A stretch of DNA of 9,780 nucleotides from a virus (taxonomy: Duplodnaviria > Heunggongvirae > Uroviricota > Caudoviricetes), in IMG/VR virus record IMGVR_UViG_2700989535_000004, positions 1-9,780 of that record. One strand, 5' to 3'. How positions within the stretch are numbered: the stretch's first letter is position 1; each line of letters opens with the position of its first letter. Position numbers and translations under genes: made by a program. The notes under the pieces are model-generated. The model was given only the letters and a program-made list of their open reading frames with translations. It was not told the origin of the DNA and made no database searches. Shown here piece after piece: positions 1-9,780 of this stretch.

Positions 1-564
1 TCAACGACTGCGCTTAGCGTGGCGCTCCCAGTTTTCTTGCTTCGCCTGCGCCGTTTTACGTAGTGCGACGTAACACGCCCCGCTGCCGCCATGATGCGGT
101 AGCGCAGTGCAATATGCCTGAACATCATCAAATTCGGTCAGCCAGCGCGCCACATAGCTGCGGACAATATTGGCATGCGATTTATCATCCCGTCCTTTGC
201 CATGAATAATCAGCACGTTACGCAAACCATCAGCCATGGCTTGTTGAATGAAACTGAACATCATTTTGCGGCACTCTTCCACCGGCTGGCGCAAAAGATT
301 CAGGCTCGCCTGTTGCGGATATTTACCACTGCGCAGCTTATCCAGCACCCCATGTTGCAACCCTTCCCGCCGAAACTCCAGCGGCTGACTTAGTGGGATG
401 ATGTCGAGAAATCCGGTGGTGAGGAAATTATCAAGCTGCAGCGTGTCGATACGCTGCGGCGCACGTTGGTTACGCGTTGGATGCCAGTGGACATCGGTAG
501 CACGTTTCAGCGGCTGGACATCTTCCATGGCGTCAAGAAACAGCGATTTGTCGTCAAGGTTCAT
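1..564 (-). CDS. smrA: Smr-domain protein (SmrA/YdaL-like putative DNA endonuclease); host gene flanking the island
   Basis: Complete 187-aa ORF on the minus strand with stop at 1-3. Smr-type core motif (..NVLIIHGKGRDDKS..). The 187-aa length and the MNLDDKSLFLDAMEDV N-terminus match my recollection of E. coli SmrA rather than SmrB; not verified by search. Confidence 0.7.
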   Translation of the reverse strand: MNLDDKSLFLDAMEDVQPLKRATDVHWHPTRNQRAPQRIDTLQLDNFLTTGFLDIIPLSQPLEFRREGLQHGVLDKLRSGKYPQQASLNLLRQPVEECRKMMFSFIQQAMADGLRNVLIIHGKGRDDKSHANIVRSYVARWLTEFDDVQAYCTALPHHGGSGACYVALRKTAQAKQENWERHAKRSR

Positions 565-782
565 GTTACATCCTCCCGCAATTAAGAGCGCGATATGATA
601 ACCAGACCGGGTCGGTCCAACAACGTATTACCCAAAATTCCAGTAATAAGTTCCAAATATTGCCGATATTTTAAGCAAAATGCTTATGCATGATTATTCA
701 TTCACGATATTTATAATTAAATGCGCATAACTTATTGAATTTAACCAACAAACATCGCTGCAAATAACGTTAAAAATCGCAA

Positions 783-806
783 ATTAACTACACCATTAAC
801 TACACC
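783..806. repeat. Perfect tandem direct repeat, 2 x 12 bp (ATTAACTACACC)
   Basis: Read directly: attaactacacc at 783-794 and again at 795-806, in the AT-rich intergenic region upstream of the Smr gene. Confidence 0.9.
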
Positions 807-1296
807 GTTCGGTGCACTGTATGCAACAATGCGGAACAAATAGACACAAGCGACGGGCTATACCGTTATCATTTTCCGGCTATCCGCCATGAAGCTGGTG
901 GATGATCACGGATAAACCGTTATGGAAGTCCCCATATCGGCATCATGCCCACCAGCGAGATTAGTTATCTGGTTGCTGATGGGAGGCTGACGAACCTCGA
1001 TGCTAGGGTGCGCAAAACTAGTGAGACCTTTTTTCTCTGCAACAGGCCCATAATTCGCGTTTTCTTTGTCTGCCGTAAGGTGGGGGATTTTTGGCGGATC
1101 CAGCAATGGCGCGGATTTTGTGATTTTTTATAGATAGACCTCATCTATCAATCCCGTGCACACCTTCCCAAAAAAAGTTTTCGAACCTGCGGCGATGTGA
1201 ACAAGGGTAGGCGGGCGGTCCCATAAGCAATGAGGTGTAGGGATTTCTATCCCCCTGGGGGTATTAAACACCACCCGATTTAAATACCGTCTTTTT

Positions 1297-1332
1297 TGTC
1301 ACTGTGTGTCACTCTCCGTCACGGTATGTCAC
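1297..1332. repeat. Four (T/C)GTCAC motifs at exact 10-bp phasing; candidate protein-binding array at the left island edge
   Basis: tgtcac at 1297-1302, tgtcac at 1307-1312, cgtcac at 1317-1322, tgtcac at 1327-1332. The array lies immediately downstream of the last island ORF (stop at 1339). Confidence 0.8.
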
Positions 1333-1338
1333 CACAAG

Positions 1339-1620
1339 TTAACGTCGTAACCGTTCCGGCTTCTTCCAGTGGTAAGTAATTTTTTCTTTCTCTTGGTACA
1401 TCTGCACGCGGCGACGGTACGACAACATCTCCAGAACTCTGGTGCGTATGTTGCGCATATCCACGCCGTTAAGCTCGATACCGTCACGGCGCATCACCTC
1501 AGCAACAACACGCACATAATTTTCAGCGGTCACGCTGTCCGGCTGCGTGGCCTGTTCGTCAGCCTGCTGGCTGATTCCGGTAACGCGGCGGATTAATCGC
1601 AGTATTTCGGCTTCTGTCAT
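1339..1620 (-). CDS. Hypothetical protein (93 aa), last gene of the packaging operon
   Basis: ATG at 1618-1620 preceded by TGGGGGCACA (G-rich SD, 4-nt spacer); 73-bp gap after the Nu1-like gene. No recognisable similarity to lambda gpA, gpW or gpFII. Confidence 0.5.
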   Translation of the reverse strand: MTEAEILRLIRRVTGISQQADEQATQPDSVTAENYVRVVAEVMRRDGIELNGVDMRNIRTRVLEMLSYRRRVQMYQEKEKITYHWKKPERLRR

Positions 1621-1693
1621 TGTGCCCCCATCGCTCTGATAGCCTGGTGTCGTCAGGTCCTTCCTGGAATTATGGCCCGTTACGGGGCGGCGG

Positions 1694-2236
1694 TTACTCG
1701 CCTTTGTTCTGTAGCAACTTCTCAGGCGCGCTTCCGGTAGTTTCCATCAGGTAATCAGCCAGTATCTGTGGCAGGTTTTCGTCAAGTCTTGCACATGCGT
1801 TACATGCTTTGGCTATTTCCCTTTTTAGTTCATCCAGCATATACGGCCTTATATCGGGAAAGCGCCTTTGCATTGTGAGCGGGAGGCTGTCCATGATTGA
1901 TGAAATCTGACTCGCTAGTTTTGAAATCGCGTAGATGCAAAACTTTGTATCAATCACCTCGCCGCGTTCGCGCTCGTTTTTAAGTTCCTGCGCTTCCGCC
2001 TGGGCCGTCATTAATCTGATTCTTACGCGTAAAAGTTCATCATCATCAATCTCGCCTTTGTCGTTTGTAAGCTGGTTAATTGCATTGTTAACCCTATTGT
2101 CTATCACGCTAGCAACATCATAAAACGCCTCACGGCCTTTACGCTCAACGGGAGTTACTCCCCACTTGTCGAACGCTGTCGCACTTACGCGGCAGCTTTG
2201 CGCCATAGTTTTTTTGTTCATCAGGTGCGATTTCAT
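1694..2236 (-). CDS. Terminase small subunit, lambda Nu1 family
   Basis: Translation aligns along its length with lambda Nu1 as recalled (e.g. RLMTAQAEAQELKNERERGEVIDTKFCIYAISKLASQISSIMDSLPLTMQRRFP vs lambda RLTRAQADAQELKNARDSAEVVETAFCTFVLSRIAGEIASILDGLPLSVQRRFP). About 180 aa like Nu1. Start taken at ATG 2234-2236 (SD GTGGGGA, 5-nt spacer); ATG 2219-2221 (MNKK.., aligning with lambda MEVNKK) and GTG 2246-2248 are alternatives. Sits 134 bp downstream of cosN. Confidence 0.85.
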   Translation of the reverse strand: MKSHLMNKKTMAQSCRVSATAFDKWGVTPVERKGREAFYDVASVIDNRVNNAINQLTNDKGEIDDDELLRVRIRLMTAQAEAQELKNERERGEVIDTKFCIYAISKLASQISSIMDSLPLTMQRRFPDIRPYMLDELKREIAKACNACARLDENLPQILADYLMETTGSAPEKLLQNKGE

Positions 2237-2261
2237 CAATATCCCCACTTAGTTAAGGTTT

Positions 2262-2420
2262 CAGGTTGGTGTGTTGGTGTTATCTTTCCCTTTTTATTCA
2301 TAGAGATAGAGCGAAAAACAAAACCACCACCACCAACCCGAAAAGGCTCATAAATAGCGAAAATCCGCAAGGTCGCCGCCCCGTAGCCTGCCGGATCGCC
2401 GGAAAGGACCCGCCAGCCAG
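2262..2420 (-). other. Lambda-type cos site: cosQ-like flank (2382-2420), cosN (2370-2381) and a divergent cosB-like region (2262-2369)
   Basis: The minus strand reads CTGGCTGGCGGGTCCTTTCCGGCGATCCGGCAGGCTACG|GGGCGGCGACCT|TGCGGATTTTCGCTATTTATGA. The 12-nt block is the lambda cohesive end, and both flanks match the lambda right-end and left-end sequences as I recall them with only a few substitutions. After TATTTATGA the sequence diverges; the cosB-like region carries GGTTGGTGTGTTGGTG (2265-2280) and its inverted partner CCACCACCACCAACC (2324-2338) around an AT-rich core. Confidence 0.8.
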
Positions 2421-2437
2421 AACGGGCCCTAATTTCA

Positions 2438-2821
2438 TCAACCAATCAGCTTATAGCGACCATCCCGTGCATTGCGACGTACACGCTCAATCTTGAGGCA
2501 TAGCGCCGCATCTGGCTTTTTGGGGACAGGTACGCGGCAATATTCAGAAGCTCGAGGAATATTGTTTATCCAGTCGATCACTTCACTTAAATACCAGGCT
2601 TTACGCCCTTCCGTAACCTGTACGCGTTCGGGGAACTCTCCACGAGCCTCAAGGTTTAGCAATGTGCGACGGCTAAGGGTAGTAAGTTCCATCACCTGAT
2701 TCATATCAACAAGGCGTTCACTTAAACGCATTTTGTCAGCAATAGCCTTTAATTCCTCTACTGCTGGATCCGGATACATCATTTCGGCAATTGGCTTAAG
2801 GTCATTGTAATGATTCTGCAT
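2438..2821 (-). CDS. AlpA/Xis-family (HTH_17-like) DNA-binding protein, 127 aa
   Basis: ATG at 2819-2821 with SD AAGGGGGA (4-nt spacer). Central segment MELTTLSRRTLLNLEARGEFPERVQVTEGRKAWYLSEVIDWI has the AlpA/excisionase-type HTH pattern, with about 40 extra residues at the N-terminus and about 40 at the C-terminus. The stop lies directly next to cosQ. Confidence 0.6.
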   Translation of the reverse strand: MQNHYNDLKPIAEMMYPDPAVEELKAIADKMRLSERLVDMNQVMELTTLSRRTLLNLEARGEFPERVQVTEGRKAWYLSEVIDWINNIPRASEYCRVPVPKKPDAALCLKIERVRRNARDGRYKLIG

Positions 2822-2832
2822 TGTATCCCCCT

Positions 2833-3174
2833 TTACACACGAGCCAGCGGCTGAACAGAAATACCTGAGCCAACAAACGCGGCAACCTTTGCCGACAGTT
2901 CTCTTACAGACTCAGGCCAGTTCAGAGCATCAACATTTAAAACACCTGTCTTATAAACCTGTGCCTGTGTTTTTTTCGCTGTGTCGATTTGTACAGCGGA
3001 AACATAAACCGCTTTGCCTGCGCTCGTTCCATCCCATACCACTAGCGCACCAGTTGCATCTTCCTGCATCAGTGGCGTAAACGCAGGTATTACCCCTTTA
3101 TTGGCTGAAAATATCCCCAGCGTAGTAACCAGTGCTTCAGTGCCAGACATGAGTTCAGTGTAATGAGTAGCCAT
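2833..3174 (-). CDS. Head decoration protein, lambda gpD family
   Basis: 113 aa. Shares with lambda gpD as recalled: TPLM, LV(V/A)WDGT, YK(T/S)G, WPE and AF(V/A)G(S/T)(G/A)IS in the same order and spacing. ATG at 3172-3174 with SD AAGGGGGAG; starts 9 nt after the capsid gene stop. Confidence 0.85.
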   Translation of the reverse strand: MATHYTELMSGTEALVTTLGIFSANKGVIPAFTPLMQEDATGALVVWDGTSAGKAVYVSAVQIDTAKKTQAQVYKTGVLNVDALNWPESVRELSAKVAAFVGSGISVQPLARV

Positions 3175-3183
3175 TGCTCCCCC

Positions 3184-4230
3184 TTAGCCAATGCGAACGG
3201 TAACAAAACGATTGATGCGGGCCGGTATTGGCTGTGGTGCAGAGTGCGTTTGTACGTACTCAATAGCCGGATCACCAGGCACAATATAGTTTTTCGGTGC
3301 AAGTTCGGCTTTAGTCAGCCCCATTCGGGTTAGCTCCGGATCCTGAATACCGCCATAGGCGACAATCCCCTGAAGAGCCGTATTGCCAAGCACCATCAAA
3401 TCAGGATCAAGGAAATGTTTTTCAGTTCCGTCCTCGTCGGTATAACGTCCGCTGTAAACAACAATCGCAACATCGCCCATATACCCTTTAAAACTCACCG
3501 AATCACCAAGGTCTTTAAGGGCCGTTTCCAGTTCGGAATTAGAACCACGGCGGGTATCCAGAGCCTCTTTTATCGCTCTGAATGAACGGTATTTCTTCCA
3601 TACATTACCGCCCATAATGATGATATTAGTGACGCCCTCACTAAATTCTGCGTAGCTCTCAATATCATCATTTGGATCAAAAGTTTCTTTATCCTTACCT
3701 GACCACTCAGCACCGCCAGACTGCGTGATAATATTTTGTGGTTTTATATTCCAGTCCAGTTCATAACGTTCAATACCATCGCCCTCAATGATATTTTTCC
3801 CCGTTGTGATTGCCTGAACAGCAAGCCATTCAATACGTGCACGTATAGCTTTAGCCTGATTTACAATCGCCTGTTTAACTTTAATATTACGCGCCCCAAA
3901 AGCATTGTATTGTTCAGGTGATACACCAGCAGGGCGCACAGCTAACTTATTTGGATCAATGCTGCTTTTCGGTTTCATATAGCCAGGGCGAATTGTTTTT
4001 GATTCGTATCCCTCATCTCGTGAAACTTTACTGCCCACCATAGGAGAGCAAAACGCCGCGATCGGGATATTTGGATCGTCGATCGTATCAAGAATAATGT
4101 CTCTCGATTCAAACATTACCGAGCGAGTGAAAAACAAACTGGTAAACAACGCATTTAATTTTTTTTGCACATCTTCAGCATTAGCCATCTGCACAAGCTG
4201 TGTAGGCGAATATAAATCAACCATACTCAT
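3184..4230 (-). CDS. Major capsid protein, lambda gpE family
   Basis: Strong colinear similarity to lambda gpE as recalled (ITQSGGAEWSGKDKETFDPNDDIESYA.., DTRRGSNSELETALKDLG, GDVAIVVYSG, MVLGNT, with an MSM start like gpE). 348 aa from ATG 4228-4230 (SD AAAGAGG directly upstream); ATG 4222-4224 has better SD spacing. The six-frame ORF runs on to 4311 but that extension has no gpE counterpart. Confidence 0.9.
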   Translation of the reverse strand: MSMVDLYSPTQLVQMANAEDVQKKLNALFTSLFFTRSVMFESRDIILDTIDDPNIPIAAFCSPMVGSKVSRDEGYESKTIRPGYMKPKSSIDPNKLAVRPAGVSPEQYNAFGARNIKVKQAIVNQAKAIRARIEWLAVQAITTGKNIIEGDGIERYELDWNIKPQNIITQSGGAEWSGKDKETFDPNDDIESYAEFSEGVTNIIIMGGNVWKKYRSFRAIKEALDTRRGSNSELETALKDLGDSVSFKGYMGDVAIVVYSGRYTDEDGTEKHFLDPDLMVLGNTALQGIVAYGGIQDPELTRMGLTKAELAPKNYIVPGDPAIEYVQTHSAPQPIPARINRFVTVRIG

Positions 4231-4393
4231 CCTCTTTACATTCATTACAAATAATTGTGAATATATTCTATTACCGATGTCTGCTATGCGAATACATGCA
4301 ACCAAGTGCAATGTTGTATAAAATATGCCGTGACAACTTCAGTGCTGATAATTCGTGTTAATGTATTTACTTCCTTTGGTCGGGATTTATGTA

Positions 4394-4435
4394 GCATGCC
4401 GGAAAATCTATTTTTTTCCGGCATCTTTTTGTTTG
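4394..4435 (+). terminator. Stem-loop (11-bp stem) with a T-tract on the plus strand; terminator-like element between the SSB and capsid genes
   Basis: ATGCCGGAAAA (4396-4406) pairs with TTTTCCGGCAT (4414-4424), followed by CTTTTTGTTTG. The U-tract geometry is on the plus strand; on the coding minus strand the hairpin is preceded by an A-tract instead. Lies 16 bp beyond the SSB stop. Confidence 0.4.
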
Positions 4436-4441
4436 CAGAAT

Positions 4442-4864
4442 TTAAAACGGTATATTATCGCCGTACGGATCATCATTCCCCGACTGTTGTTTTGCCCTGT
4501 TCAGTGCGTCAGTGGCCTGCCCCTGCTGACCTTTTTTGCCGCCCGGTCGCGCCGTTCGCGCACTGATTACGCTGTCTGCGATAACCTGCCAGCCCCGCCG
4601 CGTTTCGCCGTTCTGGCCTGTCCACTGGCTTACCTGCATGTTACCCGCCACGCTCAGGAGTTCACCCTTGCGGTGCTTTGCCAGTGCTTCGGCCTGTCTG
4701 CCAAACGCCAGGACGGATAACCACATCGTCGCCGTTCCGTCATCTGCCTGGCTGCACGGAAGTGGGACCGCCATACTCGCCATCGTCATTTGTGTACCCT
4801 TGCTGGTGGTCTTTAACTGCGGGTCAGCCACCAGCCGCCCGTAAGCCGCTATCTGTGCTGTCAT
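4442..4864 (-). CDS. ssb: Single-stranded DNA-binding protein (SSB)
   Basis: 140 aa with an OB-fold-like N-terminal region (IAAYGRLVADPQ.., WLSVLAFGRQAEALAKHRKGELLSVAGNMQVSQWTGQNGETRRGWQVIADSV), a Gly/Gln-rich linker and an acidic tail ending DNIPF (compare SSB DDDIPF). Its ATG (4862-4864) overlaps the upstream stop as ATGA. Confidence 0.85.
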   Translation of the reverse strand: MTAQIAAYGRLVADPQLKTTSKGTQMTMASMAVPLPCSQADDGTATMWLSVLAFGRQAEALAKHRKGELLSVAGNMQVSQWTGQNGETRRGWQVIADSVISARTARPGGKKGQQGQATDALNRAKQQSGNDDPYGDNIPF

Positions 4865-5112
4865 GCTGTCTGCTCTCCGGTTTTAACGTTGATGGTTGTC
4901 ACCTGTTCCGCTTCGGCAATCTCCCGTTCTGTCAGTGTGGCAAAATTTGCCGCCGCCGTGGTCATGAATGCGCTTATCAGTTCGGGATGCGCTTTCGCGT
5001 ATCCTTCTCCGGCGTGGCGGTCTATCGTTCTGATTGCCACCTTTAAGGCGTGCTCTGTCATGTCTAATGCGCGATATTTTGGTGCTGTTTTATCTCTGCT
5101 TTTTCTGGTCAT
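4861..5112 (-). CDS. Hypothetical protein (83 aa), translationally coupled to ssb
   Basis: ATG at 5110-5112 directly abutting the iteron region; G-rich sequence upstream; stop overlaps the ssb start. No family recognised. Confidence 0.5.
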   Translation of the reverse strand: MTRKSRDKTAPKYRALDMTEHALKVAIRTIDRHAGEGYAKAHPELISAFMTTAAANFATLTEREIAEAEQVTTINVKTGEQTA

Positions 5113-5113
5113 T

Positions 5114-5316
5114 CCCCACTACCCCCCACTTTTTCGCCTCACTTTTTAAGCTCCCCACATGATTTCCAACCTTGTTTTTTTGTGATTCTAATATGTTGTT
5201 TTTCAATGTGTTTTTTATTCCTCACTTTTGAGCCTATATACAGATTGAAAAGTGAGGGGCGCGGTTGCTTTTTGTTCAGTTCCTGCTATCCCCTCACTTT
5301 TGCGCCTCACTTTTTA
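5114..5316. repeat. Iteron array flanking an AT-rich core: putative replication origin
   Basis: CC(C/T)CACTTTT(T) copies at 5124-5134, 5137-5147, 5219-5229, 5292-5301 and 5304-5315; partial copies at 5114-5120 and 5153-5160; one inverted copy (AAAAGTGAGGGG, 5247-5258). A T-rich core lies at 5161-5217. The array starts at the stop codon of the replicase gene. Confidence 0.65.
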
Positions 5317-6729
5317 CAGTGGGCGCACATCATCACCGTCAATAGCGATAACGCCGTCTCTTTCCAGCTTGTACAGCCAGCGCCGGAAGTTTTTCATCTC
5401 ATACCCCAGCTTTTTCATATCATCGCGCAACAACGGGATAGTGCATTTATCGCCGCGCTGTGTGCGTGACCGGATACAGCCCCATAGTGCGGCGTGATTC
5501 TCCGTCTTGTTTCCGGCCTCCTCGATGCGCTCCAGTTCAACGGGTGGGCGCGGCTTATCCACAACCACCAGCGACGTGATTAACTCCTTGTCAGCGTCGG
5601 TAAAAAGCTCCACCACACGTAAATCATATGCAGCCTCTTTCAGTTCCTCCGCGTCCTTCATTTTGGTGCAGGAGATAACCAGGGCCTCACTGTCCGCGCC
5701 TTCGCGGCGGATCCGGTACTCAGCGTCCAGAGATGCACGAAATGCACTGGAACCACGCGCCCCTTTTGTTTCATCCTTGCCGGAATGGTGAACCACCAGC
5801 ACCGTGGCCCCTGTGCGTCGTTTCAGTTCGTCACATCCACGGATAAACGCCCCCATATCCCGCGCGTCATTTTCATCATTACCGCCAAAGCAACGCGCCA
5901 GCGTATCCAGAATAATCATGCGTACCGGTTTACCCGTTTCCCGTTCAACCTGGCGGGATGCGATAACCATTTCATCAACATCAAACTGGGCTGCAGGAAA
6001 AATCGGGCGGGTTACCAGGTACAGATTTTTCACCCGTTCATCATTAACGATTTCCCATGCCTTGATACGGCGGGGGACACCAATGCCACCTTCACCGACA
6101 ACATACATCACCGAACCATGCGCCACCCTGCGACCTCCCCAGTGGCGACCCGTGGCAACATGACACGCCCAGGAACACGCGAGGAACGATTTATAGGAAC
6201 CGCTCGCGCCGTATGTGCTGCACAATGAATTAGCCGGAATCACGCCCTTAACGACATAATCAAGCTGTGTGTCGTACCCTGCAGATCCAATGCTCATTGG
6301 TAGCGTGGTTTTTCGCTGACTGTATTGCTCGTCAGTAAGTATTTCCCCGCGCTCTGCCTGTTCGCGGATCCGTTGCAGGTAGTCGTGCCAGTTCTCCAGC
6401 TTCTGACTGTGCATTCCCTCAGGGTAATAATTCGCATCCCGTACACCTGCCGCCGCCAGCTTTTGCCCGATGGCATTAATATTTGACGGCTTGATGTGGC
6501 CTGCCTTGTACAGTCGGACACAATAGCGACCATCGTCGATAATTTTCAGGCCTGCCAGTTCGTCAAGCTGGCTGTCTCCCAGCCATACAGGCGGAACATT
6601 GTCGCCAGCAAGTCGCCCGTCCTGCTCCTGCCATTGTTTCGCGTGCGCCCAGGCATCACTACCCGCAAAAATAATGACTTCGGTCATTTTGTCGTAAGGC
6701 TGTTTTTTTAAGTTCGGTGCGCTTTTCAT
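5314..6729 (-). CDS. Replication initiator, primase/helicase type, with RepA-like AAA_25 ATPase core
   Basis: 471 aa. Walker A-like GASGSYKSFLA (Tyr where Gly is usual), Walker B-like RMIILDT and a VLVVHHSGKDE motif typical of RepA/AAA_25 helicases. The N-terminal 170 aa may be a degenerate Toprim (EVIIFAGSDAW..LKIIDDG) and the C-terminal 100 aa a DNA-binding domain. ATG at 6727-6729 (SD AGGGG, 6-nt spacer) overlaps the upstream stop as ATGA. Confidence 0.8.
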   Translation of the reverse strand: MKSAPNLKKQPYDKMTEVIIFAGSDAWAHAKQWQEQDGRLAGDNVPPVWLGDSQLDELAGLKIIDDGRYCVRLYKAGHIKPSNINAIGQKLAAAGVRDANYYPEGMHSQKLENWHDYLQRIREQAERGEILTDEQYSQRKTTLPMSIGSAGYDTQLDYVVKGVIPANSLCSTYGASGSYKSFLACSWACHVATGRHWGGRRVAHGSVMYVVGEGGIGVPRRIKAWEIVNDERVKNLYLVTRPIFPAAQFDVDEMVIASRQVERETGKPVRMIILDTLARCFGGNDENDARDMGAFIRGCDELKRRTGATVLVVHHSGKDETKGARGSSAFRASLDAEYRIRREGADSEALVISCTKMKDAEELKEAAYDLRVVELFTDADKELITSLVVVDKPRPPVELERIEEAGNKTENHAALWGCIRSRTQRGDKCTIPLLRDDMKKLGYEMKNFRRWLYKLERDGVIAIDGDDVRPL

Positions 6730-7025
6730 TTCTTGCCCCTGAATCCGTTAATCATGGTTTTCAGCTTCTGGATGTTTGCCCGTGCCCTGGCGTTGCTGGT
6801 GGGCACGTTATGCGGCGCGGTCTGTACCAGAGAAAAATCACACCGGAACTGATAAACAGGCATCACGCAATCATATTCGTAACCTTCACGGCGGTAGATT
6901 ACGCGCCGTTCTTCCACGCCCTTAATCATTACCGTGCCGCCGTACTGGTCGCGGTAAATATCACCGCGCGTAAATTTAGGGTGAGTGTTGCCACTGGCAG
7001 TTAAGCCAGAATATTTAAGTTTCAT
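6726..7025 (-). CDS. Hypothetical protein (99 aa)
   Basis: ATG at 7023-7025 with SD GGAGA upstream; stop overlaps the replicase start. Tight operon context; no family recognised. Confidence 0.5.
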   Translation of the reverse strand: MKLKYSGLTASGNTHPKFTRGDIYRDQYGGTVMIKGVEERRVIYRREGYEYDCVMPVYQFRCDFSLVQTAPHNVPTSNARARANIQKLKTMINGFRGKK

Positions 7026-7030
7026 TATTT

Positions 7031-7264
7031 TTATTCTCCGGTGTGCTGTTCTTTATATCTGTCGTGCAATAGATCTATTTCTTGCAGTTCCATTATTACA
7101 GGCTCAAGAAGCGTTATTAATGCCGTGGCAATTCTTGATTTTTGTTTGTCGCATTCATTGTCGCCAAGTGTTTCAAGCCATATGCGCAATATTTCCAGCA
7201 TGTTTTCACTGTGAGAAAGTGCAAGAAATGCGCGGTCTATTGTTTCGTGGTAAATATCACGCAT
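7031..7264 (-). CDS. Hypothetical protein (77 aa)
   Basis: ATG at 7262-7264 with SD GAGGA (about 8-nt spacer); 5-nt gap to the next gene. No family recognised. Confidence 0.45.
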   Translation of the reverse strand: MRDIYHETIDRAFLALSHSENMLEILRIWLETLGDNECDKQKSRIATALITLLEPVIMELQEIDLLHDRYKEQHTGE

Positions 7265-7490
7265 GGCTTACATCCTCAGGAAATTTTCTTCTGTAACGCG
7301 CCTCTGCCACATATTCCGCATAATCGGCGGCGATATTCAGTACATCAAGCCCCGTTGATTTATATTCTCTCGTGGAAAGTAAGAAAAAAGCCGCTCTAAT
7401 AAGCTCTGGCATTGACGAAAGCGCATCAGCCGCATCATCAGGAACGCCGGAAAATTCCTGTTTCAGGGAATTAAAACGATCATCACGCAT
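7257..7490 (-). CDS. Hypothetical protein (77 aa); possibly the C-terminal half of a frameshifted gene
   Basis: ATG at 7488-7490 lies 2 nt downstream of a G9 tract on the coding strand, which could serve as a G-rich SD. The frame is closed 6 codons upstream of the ATG. See finding on the homopolymer. Confidence 0.4.
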   Translation of the reverse strand: MRDDRFNSLKQEFSGVPDDAADALSSMPELIRAAFFLLSTREYKSTGLDVLNIAADYAEYVAEARYRRKFPEDVSHA

Positions 7491-7723
7491 AACCCCCCCC
7501 CATTTTCACAATCAGCAATCAGGATGGCTTTGGCCTCATTCAGCGCCATATCCGCACTAAGTTGCATAACCGCCAGCGAATGAGGAACGAAAGCCCCGGC
7601 ATATTCTGTTTCACTGGTAGCGTGCTTATGCGCCCTGTCCGCGATAACAGAAATATCAATCAGCGCATCAATCAGTGTTTTGATTGCTTCGGCGGCTGCG
7701 TCCGGACGGGTGTTATTGCACAT
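7463..7723 (-). CDS. Hypothetical protein (86 aa); possibly the N-terminal half of a frameshifted gene
   Basis: ATG at 7721-7723 with SD AGGGGGT (5-nt spacer). The reading frame passes through the G9 tract (encoding GGG) and stops 28 nt later, overlapping the next ORF. Confidence 0.4.
   Translation of the reverse strand: MCNNTRPDAAAEAIKTLIDALIDISVIADRAHKHATSETEYAGAFVPHSLAVMQLSADMALNEAKAILIADCENGGGLCVMIVLIP
7493..7501 (-). repeat. Homopolymeric tract: C9 on the plus strand, G9 on the coding strand
   Basis: Read directly (aaCCCCCCCCCatttt). Sits exactly at the junction of two overlapping out-of-frame ORFs. Confidence 0.95.
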
Positions 7724-7919
7724 GGTGCACCCCCTGACGAATACGGGCGGCGAATACCATCACGCAGCCAGCCGGTGATTGCTGACGGGCTTCCTGTTCG
7801 CTGGTGGCCTCAATGGTAATCACGCGCGGTTGTGCCGTACTCAGGGCGATAAAACGCCAGATGTATTTATTCAGGTTGTGCGAGTCCCGCCCTTGCGGGT
7901 GTATGGTATGATTTCTCAT
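7713..7919 (-). CDS. Hypothetical protein (68 aa), first gene of the minus-strand operon
   Basis: ATG at 7917-7919 with SD GAGG (5-nt spacer). The six-frame ORF extends to a TTG at 8009, but that extension would cover the leader hairpin and has no RBS. Confidence 0.4.
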   Translation of the reverse strand: MRNHTIHPQGRDSHNLNKYIWRFIALSTAQPRVITIEATSEQEARQQSPAGCVMVFAARIRQGVHHVQ

Positions 7920-8017
7920 AGCAGCCTCGATAATCTTGCTATCGTTGGTGGTTAGACGCCCCGTATGTGTTTCCGGCACTGCGGGGCGTTGCTCTTTGTA
8001 TTTCAACAATTCTTTTG

Positions 8018-8096
8018 GTGTGTTTCATGTTATGAGCGCATGAAACACACGTCAAGGCTTTTTGTATTTCTTTTTTTGTGTATACTGAAACACACC
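8018..8096. promoter_or_regulatory. Divergent promoter/operator region: perfect 12-bp inverted repeat overlapping a minus-strand sigma70-like promoter, plus a third half-site at the plus-strand promoter
   Basis: GTGTGTTTCATG (8018-8029), 9-bp spacer, CATGAAACACAC (8039-8050). Minus-strand promoter: -35 TTGACG (revcomp of 8050-8055), 17-bp spacer, -10 TAACAT (revcomp of 8027-8032). Third half-site TGAAACACAC at 8086-8095 just downstream of a plus-strand -10-like TATACT (8081-8086). A fourth GTGTTTC lies at 7967-7973 inside a leader hairpin (ACGCCCCG 7956-7963 / CGGGGCGT 7982-7989). Confidence 0.5.
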
Positions 8097-8116
8097 GATG
8101 ATTAGGAGTTTCAGAA

Positions 8117-8422
8117 ATGGCAACGGCTAACAAAAACGCAAAATCACAACTGACAACTGTCAGAGTCCCACTAGATGTTATGCAAGGGATGGAATCCGTT
8201 AAGCTGGACGGCGAAAGCAATGCCGGATTTATCGTAACCGCCATGCGCGGAGAAATAGCCCGCCGCCAAGCAGAAGGCAGCGGAGAAAATCCCCTTGTGT
8301 CGTCACTGGATGCCCTGGCTAAGGTCGAACAAATCGGCATCAAAGCAGCGGAAGAAATCGGGCAGCTTGTCACCGTTGCACGCGAAGAACTCCAGCGTCG
8401 CAAGACCAAAGAACCAGAGTAA
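8117..8422 (+). CDS. Putative ribbon-helix-helix (RHH) DNA-binding protein, 101 aa; candidate island repressor
   Basis: Strong SD (TAGGAG, 8-nt spacer). N-terminal segment QLTTVRVPLDVMQGMESVKLDGESNAGFIVTAMRGEIARR fits a beta-strand/helix/helix RHH pattern. Operator-like repeats lie just upstream and an intrinsic terminator downstream on the same strand. Composition is A/E/K-rich, unlike the Ser/Arg/Cys-rich opposite-strand reading. Confidence 0.6.
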   Translation: MATANKNAKSQLTTVRVPLDVMQGMESVKLDGESNAGFIVTAMRGEIARRQAEGSGENPLVSSLDALAKVEQIGIKAAEEIGQLVTVAREELQRRKTKEPE

Positions 8423-8479
8423 TCACCATCAGCGCCGTGGTGTAAGGTATTACGGCGCATTGCTATGCAGGACAACACA

Positions 8480-8653
8480 ATGACCGATAAAGAATTGACC
8501 AAAACATTATCACCGGCACGGAAAAGACGGCGCAGAAAGATAGAGCATGAATCAGAAAGATTCGCGCCATGTGCTTTTGCTCTTGAGAAATTCCTTAAAG
8601 AGCACAGGAAAAAGCTCTCGTTGCAAACCTTGGAACGAACCAAATCTGACTGA
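8480..8653 (+). CDS. Small basic protein (57 aa), co-transcribed with the RHH gene
   Basis: ATG at 8480 with AGGA 7 nt upstream; the ORF-track start at 8465 has no SD. Contains an RKRRRRK block. Followed 80 bp later by an intrinsic terminator. Confidence 0.4.
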   Translation: MTDKELTKTLSPARKRRRRKIEHESERFAPCAFALEKFLKEHRKKLSLQTLERTKSD

Positions 8654-8732
8654 TCACATTGCCCACCAGCCGCAAATGTGGCATTGTTGGTGATGCTCAT
8701 GCGTTGGGGATAACGTGTAGCTTGTGTCGAGG

Positions 8733-8761
8733 GGCCACCGTAGCGGGTGGCCTTTGTTTTG
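8733..8761 (+). terminator. Rho-independent terminator of the plus-strand cassette
   Basis: GGCCACC (8733-8739), loop gtagcg, GGTGGCC (8746-8752), then TTTGTTTTG. The U-tract is on the plus strand only. Confidence 0.6.
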
Positions 8762-8763
8762 CC

Positions 8764-9129
8764 TGTTATCCGGCAATTGTGGCGCTTCGCCACACGGTTG
8801 ATATAATCCCACTGCTCAGATTCATTTTTTGCGCAGTAGGTTAATTGTTCACAAAGGCGCTCCGGCAACGGGGCGCTTTTTGTTTTTATTAGTTTGTAGA
8901 AACCTGACTCAGAGATAATGCTCATATTCTGATTGCCGTCAGGGGTGTAAGTTAAATTTACTCCCTTTTTATCATCAAACATCTGCAACGCTCTGGCGTT
9001 AACAATATTGGTTTCACTCCCTCCAGTAAGGCCGGAAATAACCGGAATAATTTCGGCAAAATTTTGCAGATTCTGTTTTTCAGGACGAACGAAGCCCCGC
9101 CCTTGTTCGGGAGAATATCCAGTATTCAT
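8764..9129 (-). CDS. Hypothetical protein with a possible Bro-N-like motif; 3' boundary undefined, possibly a truncated remnant
   Basis: ATG at 9127-9129 with only a weak SD. The segment PDGNQNMSIISESGFYKLIKTKSAP resembles the Bro-N core (GGKQ.MT.INESGLYSLI..S.KP), but the N-terminal Bro-N signature is not evident. The ORF formally continues without a stop to 7939, across the plus-strand terminator, cassette and promoter region; I list only the 5' part, ended at an arbitrary in-frame position. Confidence 0.3.
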
Positions 9130-9181
9130 GGTTAGATCTCTGTATTAGTGGATGGGTGGCGGCTGTGTGCCGCCAGCCTGA

Positions 9182-9370
9182 TTAGTGAACTGCCTCGCAG
9201 CTTTCCTTCCATGCCAGAACTTCGGATAAAGACCAGCCAACGGAACGACCGCCGAGCTTACGCCGTGATGGGAATTGTCCGGTTTTTTCCAGGCGGTACC
9301 GACATGAACGGCTCAGGCCTGTAAGTTGCTGACATTCTTTTTCACGTATAAAGCGATCTGTGCTTAACAC
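9182..9370 (-). CDS. alpA: AlpA-family transcriptional regulator / excision-associated HTH protein (62 aa)
   Basis: DRFIREKECQQLTGLSRSCRYRLEKTGQFPSRRKLGGRSVGWSLSEVLAWKE matches the AlpA/Vis-type HTH. Start taken at GTG 9368-9370, preceded by SD AAGGGGGA (3-nt spacer); the 118-aa ORF-track start at 9538 has no comparable RBS. Confidence 0.75.
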   Translation of the reverse strand: MLSTDRFIREKECQQLTGLSRSCRYRLEKTGQFPSRRKLGGRSVGWSLSEVLAWKESCEAVH

Positions 9371-9403
9371 AATTCCCCCTTTGATATTTCTTAAAGAGTT
9401 ATT

Positions 9404-9450
9404 TGGTGTCCTATTGTGTTGTGGTGCGTCGGATTGTGTCAGGGTGTTTA
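9404..9450. repeat. Five (T/G)GTGT(C/T)-type motifs at 10-bp phasing upstream of alpA
   Basis: TGGTGTC 9404-9410, TTGTGTT 9414-9420, GGTGCGTC 9423-9430, TTGTGTC 9434-9440, GGTGTTT 9444-9450. Confidence 0.7.
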
Positions 9451-9664
9451 TGGAATGGCAAACACTGGCGGCGGTCATTTTACAGAAGTGTGGTAATGAG
9501 AATAAAAACTCTTTTAATTCATTGTGGTGCAAAGGCATAAAATTCTGTTTTTACGCCTTTTTTACATGTTTTTAAGAGTGATTCGCCAATGTACAAAAAG
9601 CCAGTAAAACGACTGAAAATCAACTTTTTAGGGTGTCAGTCAGATGTTAATCAAGTTTGTTCCA

Positions 9665-9715
9665 GATTGTTCGCCGTTGTTCGTCGTGGTGTCTCGTTGT
9701 TTCACGTTGTGTCAG
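9665..9715. repeat. Five tandem 10-bp units ending in (C)GTTGT, with TTGTGTCAG
   Basis: Motifs (G/C)(A/G)T(T/G)GT at 9665, 9675, 9685, 9695 and 9705. The 9-mer TTGTGTCAG occurs at 9707-9715 and at 9434-9442; GGTGTCAG at 9632-9639. Confidence 0.7.
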
Positions 9716-9780
9716 TTCTAAAAAATCGCAAAAAAAATTATATTTCTCTGGCTATTGGCAGTGTGGTTACGTTTTTGTGA

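Follow-up and report, generated by a model that had tools for sequence, protein, structure and literature searches.

The DNA analysed here is a stretch of 9,780 nucleotides (nt; positions 1 to 9,780 of IMG/VR record IMGVR_UViG_2700989535_000004, hereafter the window), which is a capsid-forming phage-inducible chromosomal island (PICI), or P4-related satellite island, of E. coli. This work concerns an open reading frame (ORF) of 396 codons on its minus strand, which lies between the regulator gene alpA and an icd-like gene and reads in antisense through a plus-strand gene cassette. E. coli clone D i14 carries an identical island sequence, and the PGAP annotation of that genome, given here in window coordinates, was used for the gene list. 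The features that bear on the long ORF, from left to right, with protein lengths in amino acids (aa), are as follows.

7713-7919, minus strand: icd-like gene, a kil homologue of 68 aa (NF033153; PGAP), with the Shine-Dalgarno sequence GAGG
7939-9129, minus strand: the long ORF, 396 codons, from the ATG at 9129 to the TAG at 7939-7941 (six-frame ORF list)
7966-7973, 8017-8027, 8041-8050 and 8086-8096, not assigned to a strand: putative operators, four copies of the motif (G)GTGTGTTTCA / TGAAACACAC(C)
8055-8027, minus strand: promoter-like site TTGACG-17-TAACAT for the icd operon, inside the long ORF (consensus match only)
8117-8422, plus strand: ylcI, a YlcI/YnfO family gene of 101 aa (NF041551; PGAP; phrog_6522), with the Shine-Dalgarno sequence AGGAG at 8103-8107
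8465-8653, plus strand: small basic ORF of 62 aa with an RKRRRRK motif, in the same plus-strand frame as ylcI
8730-8755, plus strand: first intrinsic terminator-like hairpin, which ends the ylcI cassette (hairpin prediction)
8853-8880, plus strand: second intrinsic terminator-like hairpin, 12 pairs and a T-run, read as 'KTKSAPLPERLCEQ' in the long ORF
8887-8991, minus strand: Bro-N middle piece, codons ~47-81 of the long ORF, with 'ESGFYKLI' (blastn, BLASTP)
8984-9129, minus strand: AntA-type 5' remnant, codons 1-49 of the long ORF, including the start used by intact antA (blastn, BLASTP)
9182-9370, minus strand: alpA, a P4 vis homologue with an AlpA-type helix-turn-helix (Pfam Phage_AlpA, 1.3e-17; PGAP)
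9413-9461, minus strand: two overlapping promoter-like sites upstream of alpA (consensus match only)

A minus-strand ORF of 396 codons spanning the plus-strand cassette, its terminator and the operator region had been noticed in an earlier reading of the DNA (the original prediction), and it was confirmed in the six-frame ORF list. The ORF is antisense to both the 101-aa ORF at 8117-8422 and the 62-aa ORF at 8465-8653, and it also spans the plus-strand terminator-like hairpins at 8730-8755 and 8853-8880, the minus-strand promoter-like site and the GGTGTGTTTCA-type repeats. The explanation offered at the time for its openness at the codon level was found to be right: both plus-strand genes are devoid of Tyr, their Gln codons (six and two) and two His codons are all preceded by codons ending in A, G or C and the ylcI stop codon is preceded by GAG, so that TTA, CTA and TCA are absent in the critical phase. 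Opposite these genes the long ORF occupies the antisense phase in which the third codon positions of the two strands coincide. The two remaining phases of the minus strand contain 26 and 21 stops within the 1191 bases of the long ORF, which itself has no internal stop. At a stop density of about 0.059 per codon the chance of 396 open codons is about 3e-11, and it is still about 1e-7 once a permissive antisense frame opposite the two plus-strand genes is allowed for. The openness of the long ORF is far beyond chance.

An unbiased sample of related loci was assembled by fetching them via their 66-68 aa Icd proteins only, from 9 species-level genomes and 160 viral contigs; loci with 1 kb or more of sequence upstream of icd were analysed, of which there were 151, in 89 clusters at 95% identity. 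In a tblastn search of Icd against the phage collection a single record was found at E<1e-3, and P4 was not among the matches. An open frame of at least 187 codons on the icd strand was present in 87 of the 89 clusters. These frames are either fused to icd or end about -13 to +27 nt from the Icd match, with a few ending at 112-173 nt, and the in-frame fusion of the leader frame to icd is found in approximately two thirds of the related clusters. When frames were measured 150, 400 and 650 nt upstream of icd, the median long frame was 332 codons versus 24-48 in the next-best forward frame, and a length of at least 180 codons was reached by the long frame in 84/89 clusters and by the next-best frame in 0/89. 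The 200-nt control region of these loci falls into seven sequence families without detectable mutual similarity, and all seven are open, at a chance per family of about 0.006, given the 0.075 stops per codon that occur in the other frames.

Homologues of ylcI lay wholly within the open frame in 113 of 115 cases (46 distinct proteins, identity down to about 32%) and always in the wobble-coincident phase. That phase was open in 62 of 63 distinct ylcI coding sequences, where synonymous recoding leads one to expect about 25% and codon shuffling about 20%; the remaining two antisense phases of ylcI contained on average 2.9 and 4.4 stops. The same phase is open for just 39-90 codons in lambdoid prophages, in which ylcI precedes a terminase gene, and a GAT-CAG variant that creates a stop is common in ylcI. 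As the lambdoid ylcI sequences are 95-100% identical to one another, they provide a weak control within the gene and a clear one for the length of the open stretch.

A second sample was made up of loci found via the YlcI proteins of seven other genera. Open frames of 237-418 codons over ylcI were present in six of them (Yersinia, Photorhabdus, Edwardsiella, Xenorhabdus, Klebsiella and Serratia), and the Cronobacter locus did not show the pattern. Four of these six genera have the first ATG of the frame overlapping, by 1-17 nt, the stop codon of the upstream antA/alpA gene, and in the other two it lies downstream of the upstream gene, by 42 nt in Klebsiella and by 288 nt in Edwardsiella; at the other end, the frames of the six genera finish either together with icd, at its stop, or short of it, 11-15 nt before its start. 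Both ends of the frame are coupled to neighbouring genes. The claim that the frame stays open only through the composition of the opposite-strand genes could not be upheld for a frame that is open in nearly all relatives, over unrelated control regions and in several genera, and conservation throughout the family argues strongly against its being open by accident. The open frame is kept by selection.

The 5' part of the long ORF was compared at the DNA level across three related islands. Window 8984-9111 matches positions 3728-3855 of the related island L002 at 89% identity (blastn), which form the start (128 bases) of an antA/antB gene that is intact, and residues 6-49 of the long ORF share 77% identity over 44 aa with the first 49 residues of the intact AntA protein (BLASTP). 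Window 8887-8991 matches positions 3376-3483 of a further island, L003, at 91% identity (blastn), in the middle of an intact BRO gene, and residues 42-97 share 59% identity with residues 57-115 of intact BRO (BLASTP). The Pfam Bro-N profile (PF02498) aligned to residues 52-91 with an E value of 0.058 and 14.5 bits (cut-off 25.6); it was matched only at positions 37-85 of 96, the initial half of the domain, present in the intact BRO relative, being missing, and PHROG anti-repressor families matched the same piece with E values down to 9e-6. The long ORF does not contain a full Bro-N domain, and the Bro-N call is weak as a domain and real as a remnant. No Pfam AntA match was found on the long ORF, the rest of an AntA of about 266 aa (its size in L002) having been deleted. 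The earlier description of a protein-like N-terminus of the Bro-N type was correct as to an AntA/Bro-N-derived 5' part, and was not borne out as to its length, since homology stops at about codon 85 and not at codon 120.

It had also been proposed that a Bro-N-type gene lost its 3' end when the plus-strand cassette was acquired. Comparison with the related islands contradicts this: intact antirepressor genes coexist with the same cassette in L002 (antA) and in L003 (BRO), so the gene was not cut by a later insertion of the cassette. L002 contains a 435-codon ORF whose ATG overlaps the antA stop; it passes the hairpin known from the window in an identical frame ('SAPLPERLCE'), reads antisense through the cassette and continues into icd as an in-frame fusion. 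Window 8831-8887 matches the L002 spacer directly 3' of the antA stop (3001-3057), which holds the second terminator hairpin. As the leader ORF is already present in L002, the window ORF arose by in-frame deletion or recombination, and it consists of the 5' end of antA and a Bro-N fragment joined in frame to a pre-existing leader ORF. Very common is a still shorter in-frame version, which retains about 16 AntA-type codons and no more (P0060, 308 aa; island L127).

The variable sites of ylcI are distributed 6/0/27 over the first, second and third YlcI codon positions, and those of the terminator spacer 15/17/12, with the three phases alike. Amino-acid divergence was lower in the YlcI frame than in the long-ORF frame in 94 of 100 and in 597 of 621 pairs. 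Selection at the amino-acid level acts on YlcI and not on the long ORF, whose openness is constrained and whose sequence is not. The codon-position counts and the pairwise divergence agree with the earlier view that the antisense and spacer part has no protein-level constraint of its own. A conserved 396-aa protein was rejected on the codon-position pattern; homologues do conserve the open frame across the region, and they do not conserve the protein sequence. There is thus strong selection for an open frame, without selection on its protein, on DNA that encodes opposite-strand genes and terminators.

Judged by its sequence features, the embedded plus-strand cassette is genuine. The N-terminal domain of YlcI matches NF041551 (YlcI_YnfO_N) with 63.2 bits (cut-off 30) over residues 9-50, and the protein is probably a small DNA-binding regulator. 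Its predicted model (pLDDT 76.5) has an extended N-terminal segment, helices at residues 19-28 and 35-54 and a long helix at 59-98. A weak Pfam match to PSK_trans_fac was found (E 0.02), and some UniRef names include 'Arc-like DNA binding domain'; nothing informative on the fold came from a Foldseek search of the model or from sequence and profile searches of the PDB, and the model does not settle an assignment to the ribbon-helix-helix (Arc/MetJ-type) class. The small basic ORF is intact in 88 related loci (22 distinct sequences), is matched by phrog_21027 at E 2e-14 from residue 6 on and likely starts at its second ATG, at 8480; its variable sites by codon position (11/8/16) show weak periodicity. 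PGAP skips this ORF in clone D i14 yet calls its homologue in L002. Both strong hairpins are terminators on the plus strand only.

Loci without a YlcI match hold another small, Arc-like ORF antisense in the same place. The islands L127 and Rahnella L009 are of this kind and share the same architecture with a different small antisense gene embedded. On the strand opposite icd and in the same antisense position within the leader ORF, this embedded gene is an ORF of 57-59 aa (MSTPLEKRSPPYQMRLPEDF... / ...ALRVEPGLEEGIKKAL...; L127 3197-3370, L009 1632-1811), which resembles lambdoid YlcI in a '...S(L/V)(A/S)(T/A)WIKR...' helix.

The control region lies at the 3' end of the long ORF. The promoter-like site at 8055-8027 is a putative equivalent of the P4 early promoter PLE. 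The motif copies at 8017 and 8041 form an inverted repeat across the -35 and -10 elements of this site, another GTGTGTTTCA/TGAAACACAC copy abuts a TATACT hexamer upstream of ylcI, and one sits in the loop of a hairpin in the icd leader (7956-7989). At the 5' end, the ATG at 9129 lies 52 nt past the alpA stop and is the same start as in intact antA homologues. The promoter-like sites at 9413-9461 are a candidate source of a transcript that would read through from alpA into the long ORF. The alpA frame itself is open for 118 codons from an ATG at 9538, and PGAP places the start at 9370 (62 aa); as the promoter-like sites fall inside the longer version, the short alpA is favoured.

These features resemble an arrangement known from satellite P4. 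As stated in the parts of PMC10111431 that treat the work of Forti et al. 1999 (J Bacteriol 181:5225), the eta gene of P4 holds the early promoter, which is constitutive, and the immunity sites, only transcription from the upstream late promoter leads to its translation, which is coupled to that of the alpA homologue, and translating it averts termination, letting the late transcript reach the downstream genes. The open frame of P4 comprises 214 codons, beginning directly behind orf88/vis and ending as kil, and it encloses the C4 (CI) and isrK (seqA) RNAs. The long ORF likewise begins after a vis/alpA homologue and ends at a gene of the Kil/Icd family, both proteins matching NF033153 (Icd-like; window Icd 68.9 bits, P4 Kil 76.1 bits, cut-off 25); the ORF of most relatives shares the frame of icd, which is also how eta relates to kil, and an internal promoter-like site and operator-like repeats, recognised by consensus matches only, lie within the window ORF. 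The latter differs from eta in being two to three times longer, in not being nested in frame with icd and in enclosing an opposite-strand protein cassette with divergent promoters, where the immunity element of P4 is an RNA. Neither C4/CI nor isrK/seqA RNA was revealed when the window was scanned with Rfam at E<=1, and C4 and isrK were also absent from 19 related loci without a YlcI match (P4 was positive for both); RNA-based immunity of the P4 type was accordingly rejected here. PHROGs label the Icd/Kil-like protein a 'transcriptional repressor' (phrog_6196, phrog_1743), which looks like a legacy of an old P4 annotation that names the eta/kil frame the 'cI gene product' and still stands in NC_001609 (8168-8584), and not like evidence of a repressor function.

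Taken by analogy with P4, the 396-codon ORF is probably the eta-type leader ORF of this satellite, the term denoting an architectural class and not a sequence family. We propose that YlcI may act as a repressor through the four repeats at the flanks of both divergent promoters, and that the translated leader would let an AlpA-driven transcript reach icd and the replication genes unterminated. In the quiescent island, a YlcI-type regulator bound to the GTGTGTTTCA repeats would hold the internal icd promoter shut. Once the island is induced, the upstream transcript activated by AlpA would read through the whole region, and ribosomes initiating at 9129 would cover approximately 1.2 kb of otherwise untranslated RNA; Rho-dependent and hairpin termination, as well as pairing with the convergent ylcI transcript, would then fail to stop it. 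The same ribosomes would be brought to the icd start, and icd and the replication and packaging genes could be expressed without the repressed promoter. This provides a concrete model for how AlpA activation may lead to expression of the replication and packaging genes, with the icd promoter held by a YlcI-type regulator and bypassed by a translated upstream transcript. AlpA of the PICI EcCICFT073 has been found to activate its own promoter as well as reporter fusions in downstream genes (PMC6092414); no repressor was assigned there, and the route from AlpA activation to replication and packaging expression in Gram-negative PICIs and capsid-forming PICIs (cfPICIs) was not worked out.

A broader reading can be offered tentatively, as a possibility that falls somewhat short of being probable. 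The repressor cassette, with its promoters, operators, two genes and two terminators, would have been written under the constraint that its opposite strand be translatable from end to end, and the induction transcript of the satellite would have to be translated across the gene of its own repressor. Convergent transcription and translation of ylcI might then constitute the switch between lysogeny and induction in a large class of Enterobacterales satellites, in which a protein module would have replaced the CI RNA of P4 and the anti-termination logic of eta would have been kept.

Several points weigh against the long ORF being an eta-type leader. Each mechanistic step for this island is taken by analogy with P4 eta/kil, and with no C4/CI or isrK/seqA RNA the mechanism of immunity here differs from the one overcome by eta translation in P4. 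The Shine-Dalgarno sequence before the ATG at 9129 is weak (GAGA), and the one hint of a Rho site is a C-rich, G-poor stretch at about 8760-8680. The long ORF is out of frame with icd in the window, its TAG at 7939-7941 lying 19 nt before the icd ATG; this stop is caused by a 1-nt difference at about 7970 from the fused relatives, which falls inside the motif copy in the icd leader hairpin, and a widespread variant ending in '...AGNTYGASNHQR' likewise stops before icd. A single ylcI gene leaves the antisense frame open by chance in about 25% of cases, so that the argument for conservation relies on the pattern across the family, whose lineages are not fully independent. Lastly, a test of whether insertions and deletions in the non-coding parts of the ORF come in multiples of three was underpowered, with one or two gap events per segment among full-length homologues.

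The 19-nt distance also bears on an alternative in which the frame mainly delivers ribosomes to the icd start, by termination-reinitiation or by fusion, and so controls a toxic Icd/Kil protein, with transcription termination playing no part. The ends of the ORFs of Yersinia, Photorhabdus, Xenorhabdus and Klebsiella, 11-15 nt from icd, and the hairpin at 7956-7989 in the icd leader are in keeping with such a role. However, icd has a good Shine-Dalgarno sequence of its own (GAGG), and coupling alone would not need a frame of 300-400 codons reaching back to the alpA/antA stop; as a sole explanation we regard this as unlikely, and it is compatible with an eta-type leader and not exclusive of it. 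Slightly less likely, in our estimation, is that the frame is kept for its product, a functional protein in the form of an Ant/Bro-linker-Icd fusion or an antisense overlapping gene. The ORF is indeed fused in frame to the Icd/Kil domain in most relatives, P4 Eta is itself such a fusion and whole Ash domains lie inside the ORF in some relatives (P0102). Against a functional product, the ORF stops before icd both in the window and in the '...AGNTYGASNHQR' variant, and the N-terminal domain is dispensable, being intact, half-deleted or nearly all deleted across islands. The middle 300 codons are Ser/Ala/Arg-rich, wholly different between control-region families and without a codon-position signature of their own. 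A functionless gene-calling trap, namely a truncated, dead Bro-N gene with a frame that is open by happenstance, would account for the chimeric remnant at the N-terminus, for amino-acid selection on the YlcI strand, for the permissiveness of the wobble-coincident antisense frame (about one ylcI gene in four) and for the missing PGAP call in the identical genome, but it is very improbable for a frame that is open in 84-87 of 89 clusters sampled independently of it, in seven unrelated control-region families and in six of seven other genera, whose start is coupled to the gene upstream of it and whose end adjoins icd or is fused to it, and which extends for just 39-90 codons in the lambdoid controls.

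Compared with an eta-type leader ORF, antisense 'shadow' ORFs such as pop, asa and ano of enterohaemorrhagic E. coli (PMC7103648, PMC6294744) are similar in being long, in opposing an annotated gene in antisense and in sharing its third codon positions. They differ in that here the frame is conserved across genera and the protein sequence is not, several genes and non-coding control DNA are spanned and both ends are anchored to real genes. A conserved frame without a conserved protein, anchored at its ends, points to a role of translation itself and not to a new protein.

The 'Bro zone' of Gram-negative PICIs and helper-embedded PICIs (HE-PICIs), in the sections of PMC10111431 that treat it, and the cfPICIs, in those of bioRxiv 10.1101/2022.09.08.507074, show the same succession of int, alpA, a Bro-network gene and replication genes, with capsid, decoration and small terminase (TerS) genes downstream, and contain domain-swapping Ant/Bro/Ash genes, with which the AntA and Bro-N chimera of the window is consistent. 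The searched sections of these two sources mention neither an antisense YlcI-type gene within a Bro-zone ORF nor conservation of the frame, and in PMC13612085 YlcI and Icd are merely listed as accessory genes. No description of an eta-type leader ORF with a complete antisense repressor cassette was found in the literature searched; this arrangement is widespread in Enterobacterales satellites.

The warning in the original prediction that automated annotation could easily go astray in this region proved well founded. PGAP leaves 8423-9181 without any annotation in clone D i14, and 51 database sequences include a 'hypothetical protein' identical to that of the long ORF (P0001). When the 396-aa ORF was used as a protein query, 1490 matches were obtained, many of them 400-474 aa long and labelled 'Icd-like', since in them the ORF carries on into icd without a frame change; overall, more than 1000 database proteins of 300-540 aa, under the names 'Icd-like' (many of them) or 'hypothetical', are the long ORF. 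In E. coli GN06667 (L004 1684-2634), PGAP gives a 157-aa 'Icd-like' protein overlapping ylcI and a separate 'incomplete' hypothetical pseudogene; both calls are pieces of a single 428-codon leader ORF, an inconsistent treatment of the feature. The embedded ylcI and small basic ORF are also called inconsistently in databases.

The remaining genes of the island were assigned from the PGAP annotation of clone D i14, which also provides the calls for alpA (9182-9370), ylcI (8117-8422) and the icd-like gene (7713-7919), as follows.

from 9738, minus strand: integrase
downstream of icd, all minus strand: DUF4222 protein, RepA-type helicase, single-stranded DNA-binding protein, major capsid protein, head decoration protein and small terminase

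Between the small terminase gene (1694-2248, minus strand) and a 127-aa ORF (2438-2821, minus strand) lies a near-perfect long hairpin of 87 nt (2258-2344), which could be a bidirectional terminator or a packaging-related site; Rfam gave only a spurious, sub-threshold match to mir-3910 for this hairpin on both strands. At the left window edge, a 187-aa ORF (1-564, minus strand) is presumably a host Smr-domain gene (SmrA/YdaL-like). The left-hand neighbours of the identical segment in clone D i14 differ and include insertion sequence fragments, the flanks of the island varying between strains.

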